DNA of 64,000 nucleotides from contig JAFVNW010000018.1 in NCBI GenBank assembly GCA_017506175.1, positions 1,056 to 65,055 on the forward strand, given 5' to 3'. The notes beneath the pieces were generated by a model, which did no database searches, was not told the DNA's origin, and saw nothing but the letters and a program-made list of their open reading frames with translations. Source of the DNA: Bacteroidales bacterium. GTDB lineage: Bacteria; Bacteroidota; Bacteroidia; Bacteroidales; WCHB1-69. Both the position numbers and the translations under genes were made by a program. Shown piece by piece: positions 10,758 through 20,256 of the stretch; within the stretch, counting starts at the first letter, position 1, and each line of letters begins with the position of its first letter.

Positions 10758-10781
10758 AAATTTCTGTTTACGTTTGATTTG

Positions 10782-12860
10782 TTATTTCGTCTTTTGGAGT
10801 CGGATTCTCGCGTCAACAGCGGTAACGTAGCGCGGATTGCCGAGCAGCGGGTTGAGGTCCATCTCCGCGATTTCGGGAGCGGCCTGCACCAGCGCGCTCA
10901 CGCGGGCAATCTGGTCGGCATACAGGTCGATGTTGACGGGTTCCTGCCCACGTACACCCTGCAGAATCTTGTAGCCGCGCAGTTTCGTCAGCATCTCCTT
11001 GGCCTCGTCAGCCGTGATGGGTGCCAATGCACTCTGCACGTCCTTCAGCACCTCGATGAAGATGCCGCCCAAGCCGAAGAACACCTGATGTCCGAACTTG
11101 TCGTCACGGATGGCGCCGATATACACGTCGGTACCGTCCAACATCGGGTACATCTCCACTGCGTAGGTGTCTTGGATAGCCATCAGGCGGTCGAACTCCT
11201 TGCTCACGGTGTCCAAATCCTTCACATTCAGCGTCACACCGCCCACATCGGATTTATGCAGCGGACCCACCACCTTCATTACGAGCGGCACATCCTTGCT
11301 ACAACCCACCTCCTTGGCGAAGGCGAGAGCATCCTCCTTCTTGGAGACTTCCACGGATTTCTTGCGGCTGATGCCGGCAGCATCCAGAAGCTCGTTATAA
11401 TCAGCAATTTCCATATAACCATCCTGACATCTGTCGATGGTGCGGCGGATGCGGGCCACGTCAATTTCGGGCTGCTCCACCACCTCGGGCTGTGGCTTCG
11501 GAGTATTGTAAACTTTGCACAATGCCTGACCGAACACGCACTCTTCGGGGAAGTTGATGCGGTGCTTGTTGGTGATGAAGTCGGCGATTTCGTCCTTCAC
11601 GTTGATGATGGAGGGCAGAATCGGGAAGATGGGTTTCTTGCAGGTCTTCATCTTCTGGTCGAGCACTTCATACACCTCCCAGTTGGCGAAAAGTCCGGGC
11701 GAGCCGAAGATGACGCACATGCAGTCGATGTTGTCGAAGTCGTTCTCGCAGGCATCGATGATGTAGCCGAGCTGTTCAGCAGTGCCGGTGGCGAGGACGT
11801 CGATGGGGTTGCCCACGGAGGAGCCACCAAAGAGCTTGCTGAGCAGTTCGTCGGCCTTCGGACCTTCGATGTGGGGAACGTCCATGCCGTTGTCCGACAG
11901 TACGTCGGTGAGCATCACGGCGGGGCCGCCGGCGTGGGTGATGACGGCCATGTTCTTGCCTTTCACCTCGGGGTGCATAAAGATGGCGCACACGGTGGTG
12001 AGTTCCTGACGGTTGTGGCAACGCACGATACCGGCCTTGCGGAAGAGGGCATCCACGGCGGCGTCGTTGGTGGCGAGGGCACCCGTGTGCGACGAGGCGG
12101 CGCGGCTGCCGGCGGCGGAACCGCCCGACTTGATGGCCGCAATCTTGCATCCCTTGTTGATGAGCGAGCGCGAGTGCTTCAGCATCTTCTGCGGGTCACT
12201 GATTTTTTCCATGTAAAGCATGATGACGCGGGAGGATTTCTCCGGGTCGAAGGTGGTGTCGAGGTGTTCGAGAACGTCCTCAATGCCCATCTGGGCGGAG
12301 TTGCCGACAGCCCACACGCTATTGAAAGTGAGGCCGTTGGAGATGCCGTACTCCTTGATGAAGACGGCGGTGGCACCCGAGCCTGTCACGAAATCCACGC
12401 CGTGCGGGTCGAGGGTAGGGATGGGGGTGTCGAACGCACCGCAGTAGTTGGTGTTGAGGAAGCCGGTGCAGTTGGGGCCGATGAGGCTGCCGCCCACACT
12501 GTTGATGGTGTCGGTGATGTGCTTCTCGTACTCGGCTCCCTGCTGGCTCTCTTCGCCGAAACCAGCGGAAACGATGATGAAACCGCGGGTGTTTTTCTCT
12601 TTCGCCAGAATGTCAACGGTGGCGGGGCAGTATTTGGCGGCGATGGCCAGAATGGCGCAATCCACCTCCGGCAGATCTTCCACCTTGGCATAGCAGTGAA
12701 TGCCCTGCACTTCCGACTCTTTTGGGTTCACGGCATAAATTTTGCCTTTGAAAGGACTATCCAATAGGTTTTTTACGAGTTTCCCACCAGGTTTGTGGAC
12801 ATCATTGGAAGCACCGACGATGACGATGCTCTGCGGATTTAACAATTTAGGATTGATCAT
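10782..12860 (-). CDS. Acetate--CoA ligase family protein (ADP-forming acyl-CoA synthetase, fused alpha/beta domains)
   Basis: 692 aa with an N-terminal CoA-binding block (IVIVGASNDVHKPGG), succinyl-CoA-synthetase-like middle domains and a C-terminal ATP-grasp. Confidence 0.85.
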   Translation of the reverse strand: MINPKLLNPQSIVIVGASNDVHKPGGKLVKNLLDSPFKGKIYAVNPKESEVQGIHCYAKVEDLPEVDCAILAIAAKYCPATVDILAKEKNTRGFIIVSAGFGEESQQGAEYEKHITDTINSVGGSLIGPNCTGFLNTNYCGAFDTPIPTLDPHGVDFVTGSGATAVFIKEYGISNGLTFNSVWAVGNSAQMGIEDVLEHLDTTFDPEKSSRVIMLYMEKISDPQKMLKHSRSLINKGCKIAAIKSGGSAAGSRAASSHTGALATNDAAVDALFRKAGIVRCHNRQELTTVCAIFMHPEVKGKNMAVITHAGGPAVMLTDVLSDNGMDVPHIEGPKADELLSKLFGGSSVGNPIDVLATGTAEQLGYIIDACENDFDNIDCMCVIFGSPGLFANWEVYEVLDQKMKTCKKPIFPILPSIINVKDEIADFITNKHRINFPEECVFGQALCKVYNTPKPQPEVVEQPEIDVARIRRTIDRCQDGYMEIADYNELLDAAGISRKKSVEVSKKEDALAFAKEVGCSKDVPLVMKVVGPLHKSDVGGVTLNVKDLDTVSKEFDRLMAIQDTYAVEMYPMLDGTDVYIGAIRDDKFGHQVFFGLGGIFIEVLKDVQSALAPITADEAKEMLTKLRGYKILQGVRGQEPVNIDLYADQIARVSALVQAAPEIAEMDLNPLLGNPRYVTAVDARIRLQKTK

Positions 12861-12894
12861 ATTATGAAGTATTTATAAATTTTCAAACAGGCGG

Positions 12895-12902
12895 CAAAGT
12901 TA
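12895..12902 (-). promoter_or_regulatory. -7 promoter box (TAACTTTG, minus strand) for the acyl-CoA synthetase gene
   Basis: CAAAGTTA on the plus strand, 35 nt upstream of the ATG at 12860. Confidence 0.5.
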
Positions 12903-12949
12903 CGATTAAAATTGGAATTAGTCCTTGTGGAAAAGAAAATAACTTTTTG

Positions 12950-12957
12950 TATCTTTG
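12950..12957 (+). promoter_or_regulatory. -7 promoter box (TATCTTTG) driving the long structured leader ahead of the HTH gene
   Basis: Exact TAnnTTTG match on the plus strand. No coding sequence follows for about 250 nt. Confidence 0.45.
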
Positions 12958-13039
12958 CGCCGTTTTTAAACACCGAATAAAAATCATTTTACAAACCTAA
13001 AAACATAACGAGCAGAATCTAAACAACAATATACATAAT

Positions 13040-13213
13040 AGATAGCGTTTGTGGCTATCCTTGACTCTCATTTTCCACAACGTCCTCTTTTTGAGGACAA
13101 ACCAATCAAGGATAAGTTGCCGATGCCGTAAATGTTACGGCGTGGAATACTTGTTAGATTGGTGGGCGTGGAAACCCGAGAGTCAGGCAAGGAACAAATT
13201 CCACGCTTTTTTT
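13040..13213 (+). promoter_or_regulatory. Candidate structured leader / attenuator RNA ending in a T7 tract
   Basis: Nested hairpins: GATAGC/GCTATC at 13041-13059, ATCCTTGA/TCAAGGAT at 13057-13113 enclosing GTCCTC/GAGGAC at 13082-13098, and GCCGTAA/TTACGGC at 13125-13141. Two copies of GCGTGGAA (13140-13147 and 13166-13173) can each pair with TTCCACGC (13199-13206), which is followed by TTTTTTT (13207-13213). Confidence 0.35.
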
Positions 13214-13555
13214 ATGGCATTGGAGCAACGCAAGGATATGGAGCACAGCGAGGTACATATCGGCAAATTGGTGAAGGCGGTTTTCGACGGCAGCGGCCTG
13301 ACCGTGGCGGAGCTGGCGCGGCGGCTGCACTGCGAGCGCACCAATGTCTATACCATCTTCCGCCGCCGCTCCATCGACGTGGAACTGTTGGCCCGCCTTT
13401 CCAACATACTGGGCCACAACTTCCTCGATGACGCCATGCGGTTGTATGGCCTTTCCGCTCCCTCATTAAATCTCACCCTCCGCCTTGACCATCTTTCCGC
13501 CGAGAAGCTCTCCCGCCTGTCGGCACTGCTTGCTGAATTACAGACAGAAACGTGA
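13214..13555 (+). CDS. Small helix-turn-helix protein (putative transcriptional regulator)
   Basis: LTVAELARRLHCERTNVYTIFRRRSID is a classic HTH. The ATG at 13214 immediately follows the T-tract; an alternative ATG is at 13238. The 168-aa track version would read through the structured leader. Confidence 0.55.
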   Translation: MALEQRKDMEHSEVHIGKLVKAVFDGSGLTVAELARRLHCERTNVYTIFRRRSIDVELLARLSNILGHNFLDDAMRLYGLSAPSLNLTLRLDHLSAEKLSRLSALLAELQTET

Positions 13556-13621
13556 TTTTATTTCTACAAAAGCGTGAGAATTAATCACGGATAAGGTAAC
13601 GGTGGCAAGAGGCGGGTGGAG

Positions 13622-13629
13622 TATTTTTG
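13622..13629 (+). promoter_or_regulatory. -7 promoter box (TATTTTTG) upstream of the radical SAM gene
   Basis: Exact TAnnTTTG match about 65 nt upstream of the ATG at 13694. The coordinate is anchored on the track frame and may be off by 1 nt. Confidence 0.45.
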
Positions 13630-13693
13630 CAAGTTGAATTGTGTTTTGTTGATTGTTTTTAATAATCAGCAATATAGCAATTGTAATTGGTAT

Positions 13694-15028
13694 ATGAAAG
13701 TCGAAAAGCGATATTTGTCACTCCCCTTGACGGCGCAGTTGGAAATCACCGATTTCTGCAACCATCGGTGCATTCATTGCTATAACCTTGACTCGGCAGT
13801 GGAAAACCGTCCGATGCGCAAGGTGAGTGACGAAACCGTGTTGACCTGTGCGCAAAAACTGATTGAAAGCCAGATTTTCAGTGTTATTGTTACGGGTGGA
13901 GAACCGCTGATAAAGAAAGAACTCACGCAAAAGGTCATCCGCCTGCTGAAAGAGAACAGGGTGCGCGTGTCGCTCAACTCCAACCTCACCCTTGCGGACG
14001 ATGACTTTATCCAATTCCTGAAAGAGCAGCAGGTCGGTGTGCTGACATCTTGTCCTTCCGGCGAGAGTTGTTCGTTTTCAAGGCTCACGGGTACAGACAA
14101 TTACCCGCTTTTTGAGACCAATATCCGAAAATTGGTTTCGGCTGGGGTACGTTTCACCGTAAACATGGTGGTGACCAAAGAGAACCTGCACGAAGTGCGG
14201 ACGACTGCCGAAAGGATGAAGGCGTTGGGTTGCAAGTCGTTTGCAGCTACCCCGATGGGGCTGAACGTGGAATATCCCCGCCTTGACCTTCTGCTCAGTG
14301 TGGAGGAGGTGCGTGGGGTGATTGCCGACCTGCTATGGATTGAAGAACATTTGAAGATGAAGGTGGACATTCTGGAGGCACTGCCCAAGTGCGTGTTCCC
14401 GGAAAGCGTTTTGAAAGGGAAGCACGCTTTTCTGAACAGGAAGTGCCAGGCTGGGCGGACGGTGATTGCCGTATCGTGTAGCGGCGATGTGCGCCCCTGC
14501 GCCCACAATCCCTACTCGTATGGAAATCTTTTGAAAGAGGAGTTACGCGACATTTGGCAGAAGATGAGCGACTGGCGTTCCCTGCAATACATTCCCGAAG
14601 AGTGCATGGACTGCGCCTGGCTCAACCGCTGCAACGGCGGCTGCCGCACCAGTGCCAAAGTATATAGCGGCGATTGGAACAGGAAAGACATGTGGTGTAC
14701 AGAAAAATTGACGCCCCCGCTGCCGGATAACACCCCAAAAAACATTGAATTGAAACCTGAAACGAGACTGCAATTTTCATCGGAAATCAGGGTGCGGGAA
14801 GAAGACGACGAGGCGTATGTGGTTTACAATGTGGAAGATGATTTCTTCTTTATGGTTAATTATGCTTATTACGACTTTATCATGGATTTGAAGAAACAAG
14901 GCAGTTTCTCTTTTGGTGAGTTATGCCAAACGAACCATTTTTCGCCCGACATCCCACAAATTCAGGATGCCATCGCATTTTTGATAAAAAAGAAAGTGCT
15001 CAAAATAATAGACAAAAACTTAAACTGA
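13694..15028 (+). CDS. Radical SAM / SPASM-domain enzyme, candidate peptide maturase with a C-terminal PqqD-like (RRE-like) extension
   Basis: CX3CX2C motif at residues 22-29 (FCNHRCIHC). Full SPASM cysteine pattern: CQAGRTVIAVSCSGDVRPC (C-X12-G-X4-C), CMDCAWLNRCNGGC (CX2CX5CX3C), then a later C in DMWC. About 100 further aa follow. The stop overlaps the ATG of a Cys-rich mini-ORF. Confidence 0.85.
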   Translation: MKVEKRYLSLPLTAQLEITDFCNHRCIHCYNLDSAVENRPMRKVSDETVLTCAQKLIESQIFSVIVTGGEPLIKKELTQKVIRLLKENRVRVSLNSNLTLADDDFIQFLKEQQVGVLTSCPSGESCSFSRLTGTDNYPLFETNIRKLVSAGVRFTVNMVVTKENLHEVRTTAERMKALGCKSFAATPMGLNVEYPRLDLLLSVEEVRGVIADLLWIEEHLKMKVDILEALPKCVFPESVLKGKHAFLNRKCQAGRTVIAVSCSGDVRPCAHNPYSYGNLLKEELRDIWQKMSDWRSLQYIPEECMDCAWLNRCNGGCRTSAKVYSGDWNRKDMWCTEKLTPPLPDNTPKNIELKPETRLQFSSEIRVREEDDEAYVVYNVEDDFFFMVNYAYYDFIMDLKKQGSFSFGELCQTNHFSPDIPQIQDAIAFLIKKKVLKIIDKNLN

Positions 15029-15204
15029 TGAATATGAATAAGAAAACAGAAAAACAGGAAATGGTTGCATACGATTTCAGCAACCTTGAACTACAAGAAA
15101 ATAGCAGAGGGAATTGCTTCGGAACCTGTGATTCTTGTGATGAAAACACAGGTGGCTGTAATTGTGACTGCGATTCTAATGACTGTGATTGTAATGAATA
15201 CTGA
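15028..15204 (+). CDS. Candidate RiPP precursor peptide A (58 aa, Cys/Asp-rich C-terminus)
   Basis: MNMNKKTEKQEMVAYDFSNLELQENSRGNCFGTCDSCDENTGGCNCDCDSNDCDCNEY. The start overlaps the rSAM stop (TGATG). It is paralogous to the next mini-ORF, with synonymous codon differences in the conserved blocks. Confidence 0.75.
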   Translation: MNMNKKTEKQEMVAYDFSNLELQENSRGNCFGTCDSCDENTGGCNCDCDSNDCDCNEY

Positions 15205-15225
15205 CATAATTAAAAAACTTATTTT

Positions 15226-15387
15226 ATGAATACAATTTTGAATTTGGAAGAATCAGTCGTTTATGACTTTAGTGATTTGAACTATCAAGTGAGCAGCACG
15301 GGGAACTGTTTCGGGTGTGATTCGTGCGATTCAGGAGACTGTGACAGTTGTGACAGTTGCGATTGCGACTGTGACAGTAATTGGTAA
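15226..15387 (+). CDS. Candidate RiPP precursor peptide B (53 aa, Cys/Asp-rich C-terminus)
   Basis: MNTILNLEESVVYDFSDLNYQVSSTGNCFGCDSCDSGDCDSCDSCDCDCDSNW. It is below the ORF-track length cut-off. It shares YDFS-L--Q--S-GNCFG-CDSCD...CDCDSN with peptide A. Confidence 0.75.
   Translation: MNTILNLEESVVYDFSDLNYQVSSTGNCFGCDSCDSGDCDSCDSCDCDCDSNW
15340..15378 (+). repeat. In-frame 9-nt tandem repeat TGTGACAGT (x2 adjacent, third copy 12 nt later) encoding Cys-Asp-Ser units
   Basis: TGTGACAGT at 15340-15348, 15349-15357 and 15370-15378, separated by TGCGATTGCGAC. Confidence 0.8.
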
Positions 15388-15405
15388 AATAAAAATACGT
15401 GAAAG

Positions 15406-16128
15406 ATGAAAAAAGAGAAATTTAAACTATACACAATCATAGCTATGGTTGTGGTCTTTATGTTGTGGCTGTTATTTTTGCTAATACCCGGTTCCCAACT
15501 TATTGCGGGCAAGGTAGTTTGTGACAGTGTTAATGCCGCCTACGTTATGGCGGGTGCTCTTTTTACAGGCCTGGCATTTGCTGCCACCTATATTTCATTG
15601 CTTATGCAAAACAAAAGACTAAAGGAACAGTTGGAGATGGACACCTTATCCAATAGTATCAGTTTGATTCTTAATTCCGATAGGTTCCGTGAAAGTCGTA
15701 AATATGTATTGTCCAAGACTTTCATTAAACATATTGAGATTTTAAAGAGAATGAAAGGGGATGCACCGATCTGTATTGAAGATTGGAAAGATTTGGACAA
15801 TGAAGGAAATGACAGCAGTAGTAGGGACAAGGATACCAATAGCTATGGGAATTATGAAAAACTGATATTCTTCTGTAGCAGAATGGAATATATGGGCATT
15901 ATTTTGAAAAATAAGGGAATTGACAACACCTTCTTGGATTATTTTGGGAACACAATTATTTTGTCATACCAAAGATTGGAGCCGTATATAAAAAATTCCC
16001 GGGAACAAATCGGCATTACCTCCTATTTCCATTATACATATCTGTATTATTTGGCAAAACAAAGAGAACCTATTTTGGAGCAAGAATGTAAGGATTTGCT
16101 CAATAAAGTAGTAGAAAGTAAGATATAA
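15406..16128 (+). CDS. Two-TM membrane protein of unknown function
   Basis: 240 aa. There are two N-terminal hydrophobic helices (IIAMVVVFMLWLLFLLI, AGALFTGLAFAATYISLLM) followed by a hydrophilic ~170-aa domain. The gene is markedly AT-rich. It is 18 nt downstream of peptide B with no intervening terminator. Confidence 0.65.
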   Translation: MKKEKFKLYTIIAMVVVFMLWLLFLLIPGSQLIAGKVVCDSVNAAYVMAGALFTGLAFAATYISLLMQNKRLKEQLEMDTLSNSISLILNSDRFRESRKYVLSKTFIKHIEILKRMKGDAPICIEDWKDLDNEGNDSSSRDKDTNSYGNYEKLIFFCSRMEYMGIILKNKGIDNTFLDYFGNTIILSYQRLEPYIKNSREQIGITSYFHYTYLYYLAKQREPILEQECKDLLNKVVESKI

Positions 16129-16171
16129 GAATTTTATAATCAACAAATTAAATAATAAATTTTATCACACA

Positions 16172-17065
16172 ATGAAAAAAGCAAAAGGAATCTTATTGGC
16201 AATTATTATGTTGTTGTTATCGCCGGCAATGAATGCACAGCGTTGTGCGGTGCTGGAGTTTAAAGCGGGAGTGGGAATCTCCCAAAACGATGTGGATGGA
16301 ATTTCCGCCATCTTTATCACCTATTTCCGTCCAAACGGCTATACTATGGTGGAAAGGACGCAGATAGACAAGGTTATTGATGAACAGGGCTTTCAGCGTT
16401 CCAAGATGACGCAGTCGCAAATGGTGCGTGTGGGGCAGATTTTAAATGTCTCGAAAATCGTGGTGGGCGACATCAATGTGGTAATGGGGCAATACAATGT
16501 GGATGTGCGGGTCATCAATGTTGAGACAGGCACAATATCTGCCACCGAAGGAGCCACGTTTGCTACATCGTCCTACCGTTCCAGCATGCAAAGTGTGGCG
16601 CAGAAATTGGCGGCCAAGATTGCCATCACGCCAGGCAGCACGGTACAGGCGCAGCAGCCAAGTGCACAGCAGTGGATAGATTTGGGGTTGCCCAGTGGTA
16701 CACTTTGGAAGTCTGCCAATGAAAAAGGGGGATTCTATACATACGAGGAAGCAGTAAGCAAATTCGGGAACAAGTTGCCAACCAGAGAACAATTGGAAGA
16801 ATTGAAAGGTATGTGTACTTGGACGTGGACAGGAAGAGGTTATAAAGTGACAGGGGGTAATGGCAACTCCATCGTTCTGCCCGCTGCGGGCTACCGCGGT
16901 TGCAATGGCAGTGTGAACTACGTGGGGTCCTACGGCACCTATTGGTCGTCCACGCCCAAAGACTCGGACTACGCTTGGTACCTCGGCATTAATTCGTCGG
17001 GAGTGGGCATGCTCGACAGCAACCGTTGCGACGGTCAATCCGTGCGCCTCGTCCAAGGTCAATGA
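16172..17065 (+). CDS. Secreted protein: CsgG/LpoB-like N-terminal domain fused to a Fibrobacter-succinogenes-major-paralogous (FISUMP)-like C-terminal domain
   Basis: Signal peptide (LLLSPAMNAQ). The N-terminal block AVLEFKAG...MVERTQIDKVIDEQGFQ...KIVVGDI...YNVDVRVINVETG resembles CsgG-like modules. The C-terminal WIDLGLPSGTLW...YWSSTP...YAWYLG...GQSVRLVQ resembles FISUMP/DUF1566-type domains. Confidence 0.6.
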   Translation: MKKAKGILLAIIMLLLSPAMNAQRCAVLEFKAGVGISQNDVDGISAIFITYFRPNGYTMVERTQIDKVIDEQGFQRSKMTQSQMVRVGQILNVSKIVVGDINVVMGQYNVDVRVINVETGTISATEGATFATSSYRSSMQSVAQKLAAKIAITPGSTVQAQQPSAQQWIDLGLPSGTLWKSANEKGGFYTYEEAVSKFGNKLPTREQLEELKGMCTWTWTGRGYKVTGGNGNSIVLPAAGYRGCNGSVNYVGSYGTYWSSTPKDSDYAWYLGINSSGVGMLDSNRCDGQSVRLVQGQ

Positions 17066-17103
17066 TTGCGCGCGCCAGAGCGCAATCGCAAGGCATTAAA
17101 ATA

Positions 17104-17151
17104 TTGTTGGGTTGTCAAGGATGTGCATTGCAGCCCAACAATGTTTTTTTT
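17104..17151 (+). terminator. Rho-independent terminator closing the rSAM-peptide-membrane-lipoprotein run
   Basis: TTGTTGGGTTG ... CAGCCCAACAA forms an 11-bp stem with one G-U pair, followed by a T8 tract (17144-17151). Confidence 0.75.
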
Positions 17152-17339
17152 ACAGATAATGATATGGCTGAATTCGTGGCTGTTTCGTCTTCCGCGGCAT
17201 CACCTGCGGTGCTCTCCGTACCTGCCGCCCGTACCGCGGGCTGACACACGGGGCTATAATGCGGCCTTCACCCTCCACGAATCATTATTCTGGCGCTTTT
17301 CGGAATCGTTGATTTCATAATTCGCAATGCAGAATGCTA

Positions 17340-18308
17340 TCAGTGATTATACACCCAATGGATTTCGTTGTGGTTGATTTCCAACGTTTTGTCTGCATTT
17401 TGGGAAATGATGGGTGCGGGAGTTCCTTCACTCCATTTCTGGTTTCCGACCAAGATGCGTGCTTCGTCCCAGAGACCTGATTGAATAAACAGGTCCAATG
17501 TTTTCCGGCCGCCCTCCACGATCACCGACTGGATCTTGTCTTCGTAGAGTGCATGCAAGGCTTCTTCCAAATCGTTGGAAATTAGGTTGAAATCGGGAGG
17601 AGTGGGGAGATTATTCAAGCGGTTTTTATCCAGCATCAGATATTTTCTCGGATTGTTTCCTGGATAATAGCGTGTGGTGAGTTGCGGGTGGTCGTTAGCA
17701 TAAGTGTTGTAGCCGATGAGGATGGCCTGTTCTTCGCTGCGCCATTTGTGTGCTATCACGCGCAGTTCTTGGTTCGTTATCCAATAACTGTCTGAGGGTG
17801 AATGTCTTACGATGTCCATATAGCCATCAGCCGTTTGGGCCCATTTGAGGATGATATAGGGGCGATGTTTTTTGTGGTAGGTGAAGAAGCGGCAGTTTAG
17901 CTTCTCGCACTCTTTAGCTAACACGTTGGTAATCACATCAATTCCGGCATTACGAAGTTTGGATACTCCTTTCCCGTTCACCTTGTCGTGGGGGTCGCAG
18001 GTCCCGATGACCACGCGCGGGATGCCCGTTTCGATGAGTTTGTCGGCGCAGGGTGGTGTTTTCCCGTAATGCGAGCAGGGTTCCAGATTGACGTAGATGG
18101 TGGATTCCTTGAGCAGTTCCGGCTCTTTCACGGAGCGGAGTGCGTTGATTTCAGCGTGCGCTTCGCCGTATTTCCGATGGTAGCCTTCGCCGATGATGCG
18201 GTTGTTGTGTACAATCACCGCGCCCACCATCGGGTTGGGTTGCACGTTGCCCAGTCCCAATCGGGCGAGTTGTAGGCAGCGGTGCATGTATGTTTCGTGT
18301 GAGGGCAT
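17340..18308 (-). CDS. ribD: Bifunctional riboflavin biosynthesis deaminase/reductase
   Basis: Deaminase zinc motifs (HAEINAL, PCSHYGKTPPC) plus a C-terminal reductase domain. The start was taken at MPSHETY (18308), adjacent to the upstream stop; the track start 18332 is an alternative. Confidence 0.9.
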   Translation of the reverse strand: MPSHETYMHRCLQLARLGLGNVQPNPMVGAVIVHNNRIIGEGYHRKYGEAHAEINALRSVKEPELLKESTIYVNLEPCSHYGKTPPCADKLIETGIPRVVIGTCDPHDKVNGKGVSKLRNAGIDVITNVLAKECEKLNCRFFTYHKKHRPYIILKWAQTADGYMDIVRHSPSDSYWITNQELRVIAHKWRSEEQAILIGYNTYANDHPQLTTRYYPGNNPRKYLMLDKNRLNNLPTPPDFNLISNDLEEALHALYEDKIQSVIVEGGRKTLDLFIQSGLWDEARILVGNQKWSEGTPAPIISQNADKTLEINHNEIHWVYNH

Positions 18309-18309
18309 C

Positions 18310-20256
18310 TTACATTGTCTTCTCATTGTCAATCACCCATTTCATGTAGAGGAGGGCGGCGACGCTCCATGCTTGCGATATGCAGCCGTTGGGGCGGTGC
18401 GGGGGTGCCCCGTCGTAAATCTCGCCGATGGTTGAAATACCGTAGTCTTTGATGTCGCGTTCGAAATCGTAGAATAGTTTTTCGATGACGGGGAGAGCTT
18501 TTTTCTGGTGTACGGAAACCAGCGTGTCGGTGAGGGGAATGAGCAGCCAAGGCCAGCAGGTGCCTTGATGGTAAGCGGCGTCGCGCTCTTCCTGGTTGCC
18601 GTGGTAGTAGCCTTTGTAGTCGGGGTCGTTGGGTGAGAGAGTGCGCAGGCCTCGGGTGGTGAGCAGCTCTTCGGTGCATTTCTTGAGTATCAGCTGGCGG
18701 ATTTTCTCGCTGATGGCGGAATAGGGGAGTGCGGCGGCAATCAGCATGTTGGGGCGCACTTGGAAATTCTGGAAGTCGCCATCCACAAAGTCGGCGAGCC
18801 AGCCCTTTTCCTTCGACCAGAAAGTTGCTTTGAAGACGGTGGGAAGTGCCTTGACAATCTCTTTCCACTCTTCCACGAATTCTTTGTCCCTGGCCAGTTT
18901 TGCCATTTCGCTTGCGAAGCACAAAGCGTTGTACCACAAAGCGTTGATTTCAACTTGGCAGCCGGTTCTCGGGGTGACGGGTTGCCCGTTCACGATGGCG
19001 TCCATCCATGTGAGGGCTTTGCCTTCGCAGCCGGCGTAAATCAGCCCGTTGTCCAACATCCTGATATTGAAGAGGGTTCCGTTTTTGTAGGCGGAAATAA
19101 TGGATTTCATGGCAGGGCCATACTCCTTCCAGATTTTTCTTTCGGTGTGGGTGTAATGGGCGTATGCCTGAAGTGTGCGGATGAACCAGAGGGGCGCGTC
19201 CACGGAGTTGTAGGCGTGTTGGTTTCCGCAGCCGATATTGGGGAAGAGACCGTCTTTCAGGTCGTTGAGCATGTTGTCCATGATCTCCTTGCAGAGGTCG
19301 GTTTTGCCGAGTGCGAGGGTGAGGCCGGGCAGGGCGATGAAGGTGTCGCGCCCCCAACTGCCGAACCACGGGTAACCGGCGATGACTTCGGTTTTGCCGT
19401 TGCGTTTCACGATGAACTGTTCGGCGGCGTTGCGAAGGCAGTTGAAGTAGGTGCTGCGGCCGGTGTGCGACTGGATTTCGTCGTCGTATAGCTTTTCGAT
19501 GGATGCGGTATTGATTGCCTCGGTGCCGATGGTGATGTAGAGAACCTGGTTTTTCAGTTTCACGGTCAGTTTCCCCGGGTTGAGCAAATCCTCATGTCCT
19601 TCGTAGCCCCGTTTGATTTCCTCTTCGTATTCGAAATTCTCGTACCACACGGGCTGATGCTCGTAGTAGATCTCTTCGGAACATTGGATATAGACTGGAG
19701 TGTAATTTTCGTACAGACAATACTTTACGCCGTTTTCGCACCAATCGAAGCCGGTGTTCGCGGCATCGTTTTTGTGGGTGAGGCGGTGGATTTGGCGGAA
19801 GGCGAGCAGGGGGTGAAACTGGAAAGAGACAGACTCGACATCATCGAGGATGGTGTATTTGATGATCATGCGATCGGCGTTGTTGAGGAAGAGTATTTCG
19901 CTTTTGAAGTTGAATTTCCCGACGCGGAAGTAGTAGGTGGGTACGGGGTCGGCCTCGAAGCGCTGCATGTACTTGTTGCCTTTGGGGTCGATGACGCCGC
20001 CCTTGTACTGGTTTACGCCGAGGCGGAACTCCATGTCGTTCATGATGACGCTCTCGTTGAGGTTGGAGACGAGCACGTGGCGTTCGTGGTCGATATGGTC
20101 TTGCGGCACGATGAACAGGCCGTGGTACTTGCGTGTGTTGAGGCGCAGCAGCGACCTGTTGGCAAAAGAACCGGTGCGGCTGCAGCGGAGGAGTTCGCGT
20201 TCTTTGGCGAACTCAATGTTGGATAGTTTCTCCTTGTCAAAAACGATGTAATTCAT
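18310..20256 (-). CDS. Glycogen debranching enzyme family protein (amylo-alpha-1,6-glucosidase type)
   Basis: 648 aa. Its N-terminal domain (RTGSFANRSLLRLNTRKYHGLF) and C-terminal (alpha/alpha)6 GDE_C-like region (GYPWFGSWGRDTFI, CWPWL) match this family. Confidence 0.85.
   Translation of the reverse strand: MNYIVFDKEKLSNIEFAKERELLRCSRTGSFANRSLLRLNTRKYHGLFIVPQDHIDHERHVLVSNLNESVIMNDMEFRLGVNQYKGGVIDPKGNKYMQRFEADPVPTYYFRVGKFNFKSEILFLNNADRMIIKYTILDDVESVSFQFHPLLAFRQIHRLTHKNDAANTGFDWCENGVKYCLYENYTPVYIQCSEEIYYEHQPVWYENFEYEEEIKRGYEGHEDLLNPGKLTVKLKNQVLYITIGTEAINTASIEKLYDDEIQSHTGRSTYFNCLRNAAEQFIVKRNGKTEVIAGYPWFGSWGRDTFIALPGLTLALGKTDLCKEIMDNMLNDLKDGLFPNIGCGNQHAYNSVDAPLWFIRTLQAYAHYTHTERKIWKEYGPAMKSIISAYKNGTLFNIRMLDNGLIYAGCEGKALTWMDAIVNGQPVTPRTGCQVEINALWYNALCFASEMAKLARDKEFVEEWKEIVKALPTVFKATFWSKEKGWLADFVDGDFQNFQVRPNMLIAAALPYSAISEKIRQLILKKCTEELLTTRGLRTLSPNDPDYKGYYHGNQEERDAAYHQGTCWPWLLIPLTDTLVSVHQKKALPVIEKLFYDFERDIKDYGISTIGEIYDGAPPHRPNGCISQAWSVAALLYMKWVIDNEKTM

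Follow-up and report, generated by a model that had tools for sequence, protein, structure and literature searches.

Organization of the locus

A gene encoding a radical SAM/SPASM enzyme, followed by two very short ORFs rich in Cys and Asp, is located in a 64,000-nt stretch of Bacteroidales DNA (the whole of which is termed the window here), which raises the question of whether these genes form a RiPP precursor/maturase system and, if so, whether the system belongs to a characterised family. The cassette consists of the enzyme, the two mini-ORFs, a DUF4760 protein, a secreted CsgG-N-like/lectin-like protein, and a hairpin terminator, in this order (Table 1).

Table 1. Positions of the cassette features in the window and the evidence for each.
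Feature	Position	Strand	Evidence or remark
Small XRE-type HTH protein, 105 aa	13238-13555	+	Pfam HTH_31/HTH_26/HTH_3, all below cut-offs, best E=1.1e-4
Promoter-like box TATTTTTG	13622-13629	+	Matches Bacteroidota -7 box TAnnTTTG; 65 nt 5' of enzyme ATG; consensus match only
Radical SAM/SPASM/C-terminal RRE peptide maturase, 444 aa	13694-15028	+	Pfam Radical_SAM 1.4e-19, SPASM 2.3e-8
Precursor peptide A (pepA), 58 aa	15028-15204	+	ATG overlaps enzyme stop; homologs found; called by gene callers in public contigs
Precursor peptide B (pepB), 53 aa	15226-15387	+	pepA paralog; 21-nt gap after pepA
DUF4760 protein, 240 aa, two N-terminal TM helices	15406-16128	+	Pfam PF15956 E=2.6e-7
Secreted protein, 297 aa, CsgG/FlgO-like N-terminus, Lcl_C/FISUMP-like (C-type-lectin-like) C-terminus	16172-17065	+	CsgG 3.8e-6
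Intrinsic-terminator-like hairpin, then T8	17098-17151	+	17-nt arms, 88% complementary (inverted repeat I1)

The window contains 45 boxes of the TAnnTTTG type, where 32 +/- 4.9 would be expected. The enzyme ORF runs from the ATG at 13694 to the TGA at 15026-15028, which shares the sequence TGATG with the start codon of pepA at 15028. The genes are tightly spaced, and the sole strong terminator-like hairpin (arms at 17098-17114 and 17131-17147, T8 at 17144-17151) lies 3' of the last gene; the weaker terminator-like sites within genes occur at chance frequency (8 versus 5.1 +/- 2.5 expected). A sequence-only reading of this locus had proposed the box, the stop/start overlap, and a terminator after the last gene alone, and all three were located accordingly, as was the 53-aa paralog 21 nt after the 58-aa ORF. 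The same reading had claimed the absence of a protease and an ABC exporter, which held for the window cassette and for four annotated loci, and how a mature product would leave the cell and be freed from its leader thus has no explanation.

Radical SAM/SPASM maturase

The enzyme contains a radical SAM core (about residues 17-245), a SPASM region (residues 251-335; 14444-14698), and a RiPP recognition element (RRE; about residues 350-441; 14741-15016). As had been read from the sequence, the radical SAM motif CX3CX2C (C22, C26, and C29) is present in the 444-aa protein, together with the full SPASM signature, C251-X12-G-X4-C269, C304-X2-C307-X5-C313-X3-C317, and the distal C335. More than 120 orthologs were found at 73-95% identity; every Cys of the radical SAM and seven-Cys SPASM motifs is invariant among 35 orthologs, and C233 and C262 are further invariant Cys. 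Because of these two extra residues, AuxI of the enzyme may be fully Cys-ligated, which would differ from CteB, for which an open-site AuxI model was proposed.

The whole-enzyme model matches anSME, SkfB, SuiB, and PqqE in Foldseek, with the SPASM region of the AF2 model being of low confidence. When the C-terminal domain was modelled with AF2 (pLDDT 85.5), the last ~95 residues adopted an RRE fold, and the best matches to this model in the PDB are almost exclusively RREs (TbiB1, TigE, TruD/LynD, ThcOx, lasso B1, CteB, and PbtF). According to this model, the enzyme is predicted to carry a built-in RRE-fold peptide-docking domain at its C-terminus. Both this domain and the conserved upstream HTH gene had been overlooked in the earlier reading.

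Neither the enzyme subtype nor the peptides are covered by any family in NCBIfam, Pfam, PADLOC, or PHROG. The best NCBIfam match of the enzyme is GeoRSP (TIGR04303; 99.7 bits, cut-off 400), which aligns residues 9-335, while the AhbD, NirJ2, DynA, and MftC models score roughly equally and the PqqE model also matches. The PapB model (NF047865) reaches 75 bits (cut-off 340), the anSME model 61.5 bits (cut-off 349; lower than several other models), and the SCIFF maturase family is not among the best 25 families. The peptides match no family model, including that of SCIFF, and their motifs were not found in the literature searched. With the GeoRSP and PapB scores so far below their cut-offs and the peptides matching nothing, membership of a characterised RiPP family was rejected, in keeping with the earlier remark that the pattern was not recognisable.

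Precursor peptides

The two peptides share 58% identity over 36 aa. In pepA, a leader of about residues 1-29 containing VAYDFSNLELQENSRGN is followed by the core CFGTCDSCDENTGGCNCDCDSNDCDCNEY, and in pepB the leader carries VVYDFSDLNYQVSSTGN and the core is CFGCDSCDSGDCDSCDSCDCDCDSNW. Across the family the leader reads xYDFSNLxLQE..NCF/Y, also written (V/A)(Y/F)DFSNL..QE..NC(F/Y), and the core is hypervariable, with 2-13 Cys; the conserved N-terminal block and Cys/Asp-rich C-terminus noticed in the two window peptides therefore recur across homologs. The position after a core Cys is D in 71%, N in 22%, and E in 3% of cases (together 96%), whereas D/N at i+4 is found in 38%, which equals background. 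Judged from these frequencies, the repeat unit is the dipeptide C-[D/N], not CX3D, so that of the earlier proposal of C-D units with CX3D spacings, the direct pairing stands and the spacing does not.

Mini-ORFs (1-3 per locus) lie directly 3' of the enzyme, no more than a few nt from its stop, in 10 of 10 orthologous genome loci, counted as those containing the enzyme 3' end. When the search started from the peptides, each of the 14 metagenome loci that could be assessed had the enzyme immediately 5' of them. The suggested check of whether orthologous enzymes always precede Cys/Asp-rich mini-ORFs was thus answered in both directions. The mini-ORFs are short, low-complexity, AT-rich, and unannotated or 'hypothetical' wherever found, all of which could also describe chance ORFs or a non-coding spacer beside an enzyme acting on some other substrate. 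However, this explanation is scarcely credible, because 25 other loci have mini-ORFs with the conserved leader in the equivalent place, and leader codons turn over synonymously (Ser as AGC, AGT, and TCC). In addition, 69 peptide clusters (50% identity) with the leader and C-[D/N] core design were retrieved when 1.84 billion proteins were searched with a profile, and across the six reading frames of the whole 64 kb, pepA and pepB are alone in combining the leader motif with a Cys-rich core. Diversity within leader codons is about twice as high at the third position (0.53) as at positions 1 and 2 (0.29 and 0.25), and the leader is under protein-level selection. The two mini-ORFs are precursor peptides.

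Neighboring genes

The HTH protein also matches a PHROG 'transcriptional regulator' (E=3.5e-4), and its homologs lie directly 5' of the enzyme in loci L001-L005, L021, and L022; it likely regulates the cassette. The 2-TM protein of the earlier reading indeed has two predicted N-terminal TM helices and belongs to DUF4760. According to the positive-inside rule applied to its sequence, it is predicted to be membrane-anchored with a cytoplasmic helical domain. All 10 genome loci, as well as 11 metagenome loci, have it 3' of the peptides, with identities mostly of 21-37% and of 56-66% in L021 and L022, which are the closest. It is a conserved third component of the cassette, evolving as fast as the peptide cores.

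The last gene had been described as a CsgG-like/FISUMP lipoprotein. Its CsgG N-terminal match passes the Pfam cut-off (26.8 versus 20.8 bits), while the FISUMP and Lcl_C matches fall below theirs; a signal peptide is present in the product, whereas a canonical lipobox is not (...AMNAQRC), and the label 'lipoprotein' is doubtful. Relatives adjoin the cassette in L001, L002, L005, L007, L008, L012, L017, L019, L021, and L030, often with an FGE-sulfatase domain instead.

Comparison with known systems

In the PapB/PapA (freyrasin) system of Paenibacillus polymyxa, too, the maturase is a radical SAM/SPASM enzyme and the precursor contains many Cys-Asp pairs. PapB joins Cys sulfur to the Asp beta carbon, giving the six thioethers of freyrasin, and tolerates CX0D to CX6D (PMC9413430, PMC8326336). 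Unlike PapA, whose repeat is CX3D, the present peptides have up to 13 C-[D/N] units, often with Asn for Asp, and the system differs further in its Bacteroidales host, C-terminal RRE, and DUF4760 partner. In the streptococcal RaS-RiPP system NxxcB/NxxcA, Cys is joined to the beta carbon of a nearby Asn (PMC8326336), so Asn can serve as an acceptor. NxxcA differs in having one bridge in an N-x-x-C motif, an unrelated leader, and a streptococcal host. SCIFF/CteB-type ranthipeptides also have a small Cys-rich precursor beside a SPASM maturase, usually without a dedicated protease or exporter, whereas their core is conserved with six Cys and the RRE of CteB is N-terminal.

Among solved structures, anSME, a SPASM enzyme acting on peptide Cys, is closest in both sequence (E=1.9e-8) and fold (E=1e-10), but it lacks an RRE and its substrates are sulfatases with C-x-P/A-x-R rather than leader-bearing peptides. 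In the GeoRSP system, the PqqD-family chaperone is a separate protein, and another SPASM protein is also used. Proteusin epimerases (PoyD type) are radical SAM peptide modifiers with a C-terminal RRE (PMC8326336), but they lack SPASM, and their precursors have a nitrile-hydratase-like leader.

Proposed modification and alternative explanations

By analogy with PapB and NxxcB, the modification is tentatively, at a little short of an even chance, a thioether from Cys to Asp/Asn. The leader would dock as a strand on the C-terminal RRE; the 5'-deoxyadenosyl radical from the radical SAM site would abstract H from the Asp/Asn after each core Cys, and a Cys thiolate, brought into place by the auxiliary clusters of SPASM, would capture the carbon radical. 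Repeated cycles would yield a ladder of ~4-13 ranthionine-type bridges, comparable to those made by PapB (Asp) and NxxcB (Asn). The DUF4760 protein would then probably handle or tolerate the product (immunity, retention, or hand-over), and the HTH protein probably controls the operon. Since D and N interchange in the cores, a shared beta-methylene acceptor seems to fit better than carboxylate metal ligation. Against this proposal, the enzyme is not near PapB, and the core CxC/CxxC spacing also matches metal-binding peptides.

The same RiPP cassette might instead perform other radical chemistry, such as sactionine formation (Cys S to alpha-carbon), epimerisation of core residues, Cys oxidation to formylglycine, or a new crosslink type, which we consider unlikely. 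That the nearest solved relative is anSME, which attacks the Cys beta-hydrogen, points in this direction, as does the position of the enzyme outside all curated thioether-forming families. AuxI of anSME is fully ligated, and the extra invariant Cys could produce the same state here. However, the low anSME model score and the lack of sulfatase-type motifs in the peptide sequences argue against such alternatives. Proteusin epimerases are the other enzymes reported to carry a C-terminal RRE, which speaks for this kind of chemistry, but they are without SPASM (PMC8326336), and the simplest reading of the strict Cys-then-D/N pairing is a donor with its acceptor. The peptides might also mainly bind metal or Fe-S (metallothionein- or metallophore-like), with the enzyme adding a minor modification, or be intracellular cofactor precursors comparable to mycofactocin or PQQ; this is quite improbable. 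Such roles would suit the core composition (Cys 27%, Asp 23%, and CxC or CxxC spacing in 68% of Cys-Cys gaps), the absence of a signal peptide, protease, and exporter, the predicted cytoplasmic DUF4760 domain, and the MftC and PqqE models among the enzyme matches. However, Asn, which often replaces Asp after Cys, is a poor metal ligand, hypervariable cores and several paralogs per locus typify antagonism or signalling peptides more than cofactors, and a dedicated RRE and leader imply extensive enzyme processing.

The reading as a RiPP cassette is supported by the RRE-fold domain, the leader/core mini-ORFs, and the reciprocal co-occurrence of enzyme and peptides, and this rumen Bacteroidales cassette is very probably a RiPP precursor/maturase system. 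With modest confidence, we propose that it is the operon for a previously undescribed RiPP family outside any curated family, most likely with multiple Cys-Asp/Asn thioethers.

Gene Organization and Surroundings of the Cassette

The cassette is a compact gene row on the plus strand between two housekeeping genes, and the ORF coordinates confirm the arrangement described in the sequence-only reading, including an enzyme gene, an overlapping mini-ORF, its paralog, and a hairpin.

Features of the cassette and its flanking genes, with positions in the window
Feature	Position	Strand	Remark
ADP-forming acyl-CoA synthetase, 692 aa	10782-12860	-	housekeeping flank, one side of cassette
Helix-turn-helix protein, 105 aa	13238-13555	+	
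TATTTTTG box, match to TAnnTTTG	13622-13629	+	
Radical SAM/SPASM protein, 444 aa	13694-15028	+	
pepA ORF, 58 aa	15028-15204	+	start codon overlaps the enzyme's TGA by its A
pepB ORF, 53 aa, paralog of pepA	15226-15387	+	21-nt gap before
DUF4760 protein, 240 aa, two N-terminal hydrophobic helices	15406-16128	+	
Signal-peptide protein, 297 aa	16172-17065	+	
Hairpin, 17-nt arms, then T8	17098-17151	+	
ribD	17340-18332	-	housekeeping flank, other side of cassette

The TAnnTTTG box occurs 45 times in the whole window, compared with 32 +/- 4.9 copies expected from shuffles. Many copies are intergenic and ahead of genes (e.g., 12950, 13622, 20379/20387, and 40869), a distribution consistent with Bacteroidota-type promoter usage. 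No riboswitch or leader RNA was found in 12700-17400 (Rfam, E <= 1), no direct or inverted repeats that would indicate a mobile element flank the cassette, and no relatives of the cassette were found in IMG/VR. A 662-aa ORF on the plus strand (10779-12767) lies wholly over the acyl-CoA synthetase gene and is a shadow ORF of this GC-rich gene, not a second gene. A 72-aa ORF (17026-17244) spanning the terminator hairpin is probably spurious; a 60-aa version of it has been called as a gene in the public contig L013.

GC3 also breaks inside the operon. The catalytic core of the enzyme gene tracks the host genome (0.66 in the window), while the RRE-coding 3' end, the peptides, and the DUF4760 gene are always AT-richer (0.47 and 0.42 in the window), as is likewise the case in 10/10 other genome loci. 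Judging by base composition, the module of RRE, peptides, and DUF4760 may be exchanged or evolving apart from the catalytic core.

The Radical SAM/SPASM Enzyme and Its C-Terminal Domain

The CX3CX2C motif and the seven-Cys SPASM signature, both named in the sequence-only reading, are exact at residues 22-29 (C22-X3-C26-X2-C29), 251-269 (C251-X12-G-X4-C269), 304-317 (C304-X2-C307-X5-C313-X3-C317), and 335 (C335). All of these motif Cys are invariant in 35 orthologs, and so are C120, C180, C233, and C262, the last of which lies inside the first SPASM segment. Both Pfam domains scored above their cut-offs (Radical_SAM 1.4e-19, SPASM 2.3e-8), and the nearest solved structures, by sequence and again by fold, are anSME, PqqE, SkfB, and SuiB. 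In the databases, relatives of the enzyme at 73-95% identity fall into more than 120 clusters, which are named only "radical SAM protein" or left unnamed; those with an organism name all come from Bacteroidales MAGs.

The full-length AlphaFold model (AF2) is poor in the SPASM region (pLDDT 29-41, residues 250-349) and confident at residues 350-441 (pLDDT 81-89); residues 345-444 modelled alone by AF2 reached a pLDDT of 85.5. The modelled C-terminal domain starts with four strands and one helix, continues with a short strand and a pair of helices, and closes with a last strand. When compared with the PDB by Foldseek, its top matches were almost only RiPP recognition elements (RREs), led by TbiB1 bound to its leader (probability 1.0, TM 0.53-0.59) and followed by TigE (TMq 0.65), with further matches to the TruD/LynD heterocyclases, ThcOx, lasso B1, CteB, the PbtF RRE, and McbB. 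The E-values are modest (7e-3 and up), and it is the agreement among the matches that is telling. The RRE is detectable by fold comparison only: a Pfam search of residues 341-444 found no family, and PDB sequences searched with a profile made from 17 C-terminal domains yielded nothing above noise (the top match was an Smc coiled coil at E = 0.085).

According to the model, the enzyme carries an RRE fold at its C-terminus, and the fold matches of its last ~100 residues point to the architecture radical SAM, SPASM, C-terminal RRE. In the SPASM maturases among the structure matches, the RRE is N-terminal or a separate protein. Identity among relatives is 40-71% in the RRE, compared with 73-95% over the full enzyme. 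A review describes C-terminal RREs in proteusin epimerases, which are without SPASM (PMC8326336). The sequence-only reading of the locus as a RiPP system was supported wherever it was testable and is corrected in two respects: it had missed the RRE in the enzyme, and the core unit is C-[D/N] in place of CX3D.

A Conserved Family of Precursor Peptides

The enzyme was found in 12 species-representative genomes, indicated as yak, buffalo, and cattle rumen MAGs. Whether orthologous enzymes are always followed by mini-ORFs had been raised from the sequence, and the answer is yes for the genome loci: in all ten that contain the 3' end of the enzyme gene, one to three mini-ORFs start within a few nucleotides of its stop codon. 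Scanning of metagenome contigs with the leader pattern gave 15 loci, 14 of which have the enzyme directly upstream, and the contig of the 15th begins at the peptide, so that its upstream side is absent from the data. The SPASM radical SAM enzyme, together with its modelled RRE, is genetically locked to these leader-plus-core peptides.

When 1.84 billion representative proteins were searched with a profile built from 28 peptides, 69 clusters were identified (E <= 1e-3), all of the same design. Among 99 sequences, a leader of ~29 residues containing (V/A)(Y/F)DFSNLxLQE ends in an almost invariant N-C-(F/Y) junction. D16, F17, S18, and N19 of the leader motif are conserved at >=90%, and N29 and C30 were invariant. 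The hypervariable core that follows is ~29 residues long and carries 2-13 Cys (7.9 on average); Cys makes up 27% of it, Asp 23%, and Asn 10.6%. In a 10-codon leader block, nucleotide diversity is 0.29 and 0.25 at the first two codon positions and 0.53 at the third, and loci differ in which of the synonymous Ser and Leu codon families they use, which indicates that the mini-ORFs are under selection as protein. No other such ORF occurs in any frame of the window. Chance ORFs were rejected as an explanation.

Several variants were observed within the family. Nine members (P0156, P0157, P0169, P0182, P0189, P0191, P0197, P0199, and P0205) continue for 30-220 residues after the Cys/Asp core in Lys/Glu-rich, probably helical tails, and their modified region would lie mid-protein. 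The C-terminal residue is Trp in 26/99 peptides, typically in ...CD(H/S/R)GW or ...S(N/D/R)W, and Asp in 27/99; the recurrent aromatic end was noted at the pepB C-terminus (15382-15384) as well as across the family. One locus with typical peptides and a 74% identical enzyme, L006 (DAIOUZ010000132.1, a 9-kb contig), is filed under "Candidatus Limiplasma sp.", which we take to be a Firmicutes lineage; this placement reflects either a binning error or horizontal transfer.

The Repeat Rule of the Core

With the junction Cys left out, the residue after a core Cys is Asp in 71%, Asn in 22%, and Glu in 3% of cases (96% together, n = 597). Asp and Asn at i+4 amount to 38%, compared with 32-35% at offsets -2 to -4, and no other offset stands out. 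The repeat is therefore a C-[D/N] dipeptide with 0-1 further residues between units, the commonest inter-Cys units being CD, CN, CDS, and CDN, and Cys is spread through the whole core at a spacing of 2-3 residues. The CX3D spacing stressed in the sequence-only reading did not hold as the repeat unit, because its i+4 frequency is that of background and the enrichment is confined to i+1.

Accessory Genes

A DUF4760 protein follows the peptides in 10/10 genome loci and likewise in 11 loci from metagenomes. Its N-terminus carries one or two transmembrane helices, and its helical domain is predicted to be cytoplasmic by the positive-inside rule. The conserved motifs are VFS.S, Y.KI.YFC..MEY.G, LDYYG.T, and Y.HYT.LY; the alignment revealed no recognisable catalytic signature, and neither named homologs nor literature were found for the protein. 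It is only 25-35% identical in genome loci where the enzyme is 67-83% identical, and this fast divergence, in step with the cores and the RRE, suggests that DUF4760 contacts the product directly and could act in immunity, retention, or hand-over.

The HTH protein is found again upstream of the cassette in seven loci. In the 297-aa protein, the N-terminal domain is CsgG/FlgO-like and the C-terminal one Lcl_C/FISUMP-like, and in ~10/25 other loci the cassette is flanked by proteins that share this N-terminal domain and have a C-type-lectin-like C-terminus. The C-terminal domain of many of these neighbours matches FGE-sulfatase strongly (1e-46 to 1e-51). Some loci carry three to five CsgG-N-type genes in a row, and such arrays of paralogous signal-peptide proteins, with a CsgG/FlgO/LpoB-like N-terminal and an FGE-sulfatase C-terminal domain, were observed around the cassette in L007 (2395-8639), L008 (3788-10788), and L019 (4641-14515). 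The FGE fold is known from sulfatase maturation, where it binds Cys-containing peptides, and by analogy a link between these neighbours and the Cys-rich peptides is conceivable. Secreted lectin-like proteins near the cassette were judged commoner than chance among loci that are non-independent, and the link is suggestive. As the sequence-only reading had stated, there is no leader protease, C39-ABC exporter, or GG motif: neither a protease nor an ABC exporter was found in the cassette of the window and in four annotated loci, and the peptide leaders do not end in GG.

Comparison with Known Families

In its workings the system is like a ranthipeptide or SCIFF-type system, but by the tests made it belongs to none of the PapB, SCIFF, CXXX-repeat, GG-Bacteroidales, sactisynthase, anSME, and GeoRSP families. 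In NCBIfam, 93 radical SAM families match the enzyme, and the best 25 all score far below their curated cut-offs. The GeoRSP model (TIGR04303) gave 99.7 bits against 400, AhbD 90.8 against 500, DynA 84 against 450, the PapB-type maturase (NF047865) 75.0 against 340, MftC 72 against 265, StsB 62.8 against 625, the anaerobic sulfatase maturase anSME (TIGR03942) 61.5 against 349, and AlbA 58.9 against 850. Since no score comes near its cut-off, the enzyme is a SPASM protein outside the named subfamilies, and the subfamily profile search proposed from the sequence thus ended with no curated RiPP family claiming it.

Assignment to the GeoRSP and PapB-type maturases was rejected on these scores. The peptides are not freyrasin-like precursors either, as the freyrasin repeat is CX3D and the repeat here is C-[D/N]. 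SCIFF was rejected because the peptides match none of the NCBIfam families at E <= 1 (TIGR03973 being the SCIFF peptide model) and the SCIFF maturase model (TIGR03974) is not among the enzyme's best 25 matches. CXXX-repeat and GG-Bacteroidales targets gave no peptide match in NCBIfam or Pfam searches, and the latter type is further excluded by the leader end without Gly-Gly and by the peptidase and ABC exporter missing from the window cassette and four annotated loci. In sactipeptide hairpins the N-terminal half supplies the donor Cys and the C-terminal half the acceptors, in contrast to the Cys found throughout the core here, and the scores of the sactisynthases AlbA and StsB agree. For sulfatase maturation, C-x-P/A-x-R was not seen on reading the peptides. 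An anti-phage defence or phage-borne system was also rejected: in PADLOC the enzyme resembled viperin models only as a generic radical SAM protein, and PHROGs gave nothing for the peptide or DUF4760. The radical SAM enzyme of Porphyromonas "BGC8" is not of the same family, because its RRE-like extension is N-terminal and its precursor differs (PMC10352776).

Literature searches on the peptide motifs, DUF4760, ranthipeptides, and Bacteroidales RiPP mining found no description, many subscription-journal papers lying outside their scope, and the family is not reported in the Bacteroidales and rumen RiPP surveys among the searched literature. The novelty suspected from the sequence therefore stands to the extent that no curated family and no searched paper contains the peptide motifs; "undescribed" here means not found in that literature and is no proof of absence. 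The logic of a radical SAM/SPASM enzyme with a Cys-rich precursor is familiar, and what is new is the precursor family with its repeat rule, the order of the domains in the enzyme, and the partner protein.

Proposed Mechanism and Product

Short precursor genes adjoin the enzyme, the leader is conserved, the core is variable, and the enzyme has a modelled RRE, as in the general definition of a RiPP; we consider it highly probable that the locus encodes a RiPP precursor and its maturase. In the proposed mechanism, the YDFSNL segment of the leader would pair with the RRE sheet, and the enzyme would then work along the C-[D/N] units. The Asp or Asn after each Cys would serve as the hydrogen-abstraction site and acceptor carbon, giving a thioether from Cys to the beta carbon. 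According to previous studies, PapB links Cys to the Asp beta carbon six times in freyrasin and accepts CX0D to CX6D in vitro (PMC9413430), and NxxcB links Cys to the Asn beta carbon (PMC8326336). Because Asp and Asn exchange freely in the cores and both acceptors have such precedent, a multiply thioether-bridged peptide is the preferred product, tentatively and by analogy, at a little under an even chance.

The same peptides might instead undergo other radical chemistry, such as sactionine formation, epimerisation, formylglycine formation, or a new reaction. A metal-binding or cofactor-like product kept inside the cell would suit the CxC/CxxC spacing of the cores and the missing exporter in the window cassette and the four annotated loci; however, free exchange of Asp and Asn fits an acceptor role better than that of a carboxylate metal ligand. 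An extension of the thioether-bridged reading would be a new structural "ladder" class of RiPP. A SPASM enzyme, unusual in its C-terminal RRE, would link almost all Cys to the Asp/Asn directly after them, so that each peptide would hold up to 13 vicinal thioether rings of seven members. The function of the peptide would be tied to the fast-evolving, membrane-anchored DUF4760 and to the secreted CsgG-N/FGE-like lectin families, the whole being a peptide-plus-receptor or an immunity system peculiar to rumen Bacteroidales. Taken jointly, these features seem unlikely to hold.

Significance

Radical SAM/SPASM enzymes have been a repeated source of new peptide chemistry, and an uncharacterised RiPP family of the radical SAM type is in itself no rarity. 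Bacteroidales dominate the rumen. The present family, from an under-explored phylum, is well delimited and widespread, with more than 120 enzyme clusters, 69 peptide clusters, the C-[D/N] rule, the leader motif, and the built-in RRE, and is ready for a simple co-expression experiment. In the Hungate1000 survey, ranthipeptide-type clusters were largely absent from rumen Bacteroidota (2/254), and the detection rule keys on the SCIFF peptide model (PMC13289728), which the cassette peptides do not match. If the product is a dense thioether ladder, it would extend the known crosslink topology and place a new peptide-stapling enzyme beside PapB. It would also raise the question of the peptide's role in the rumen and give DUF4760 its first functional context.
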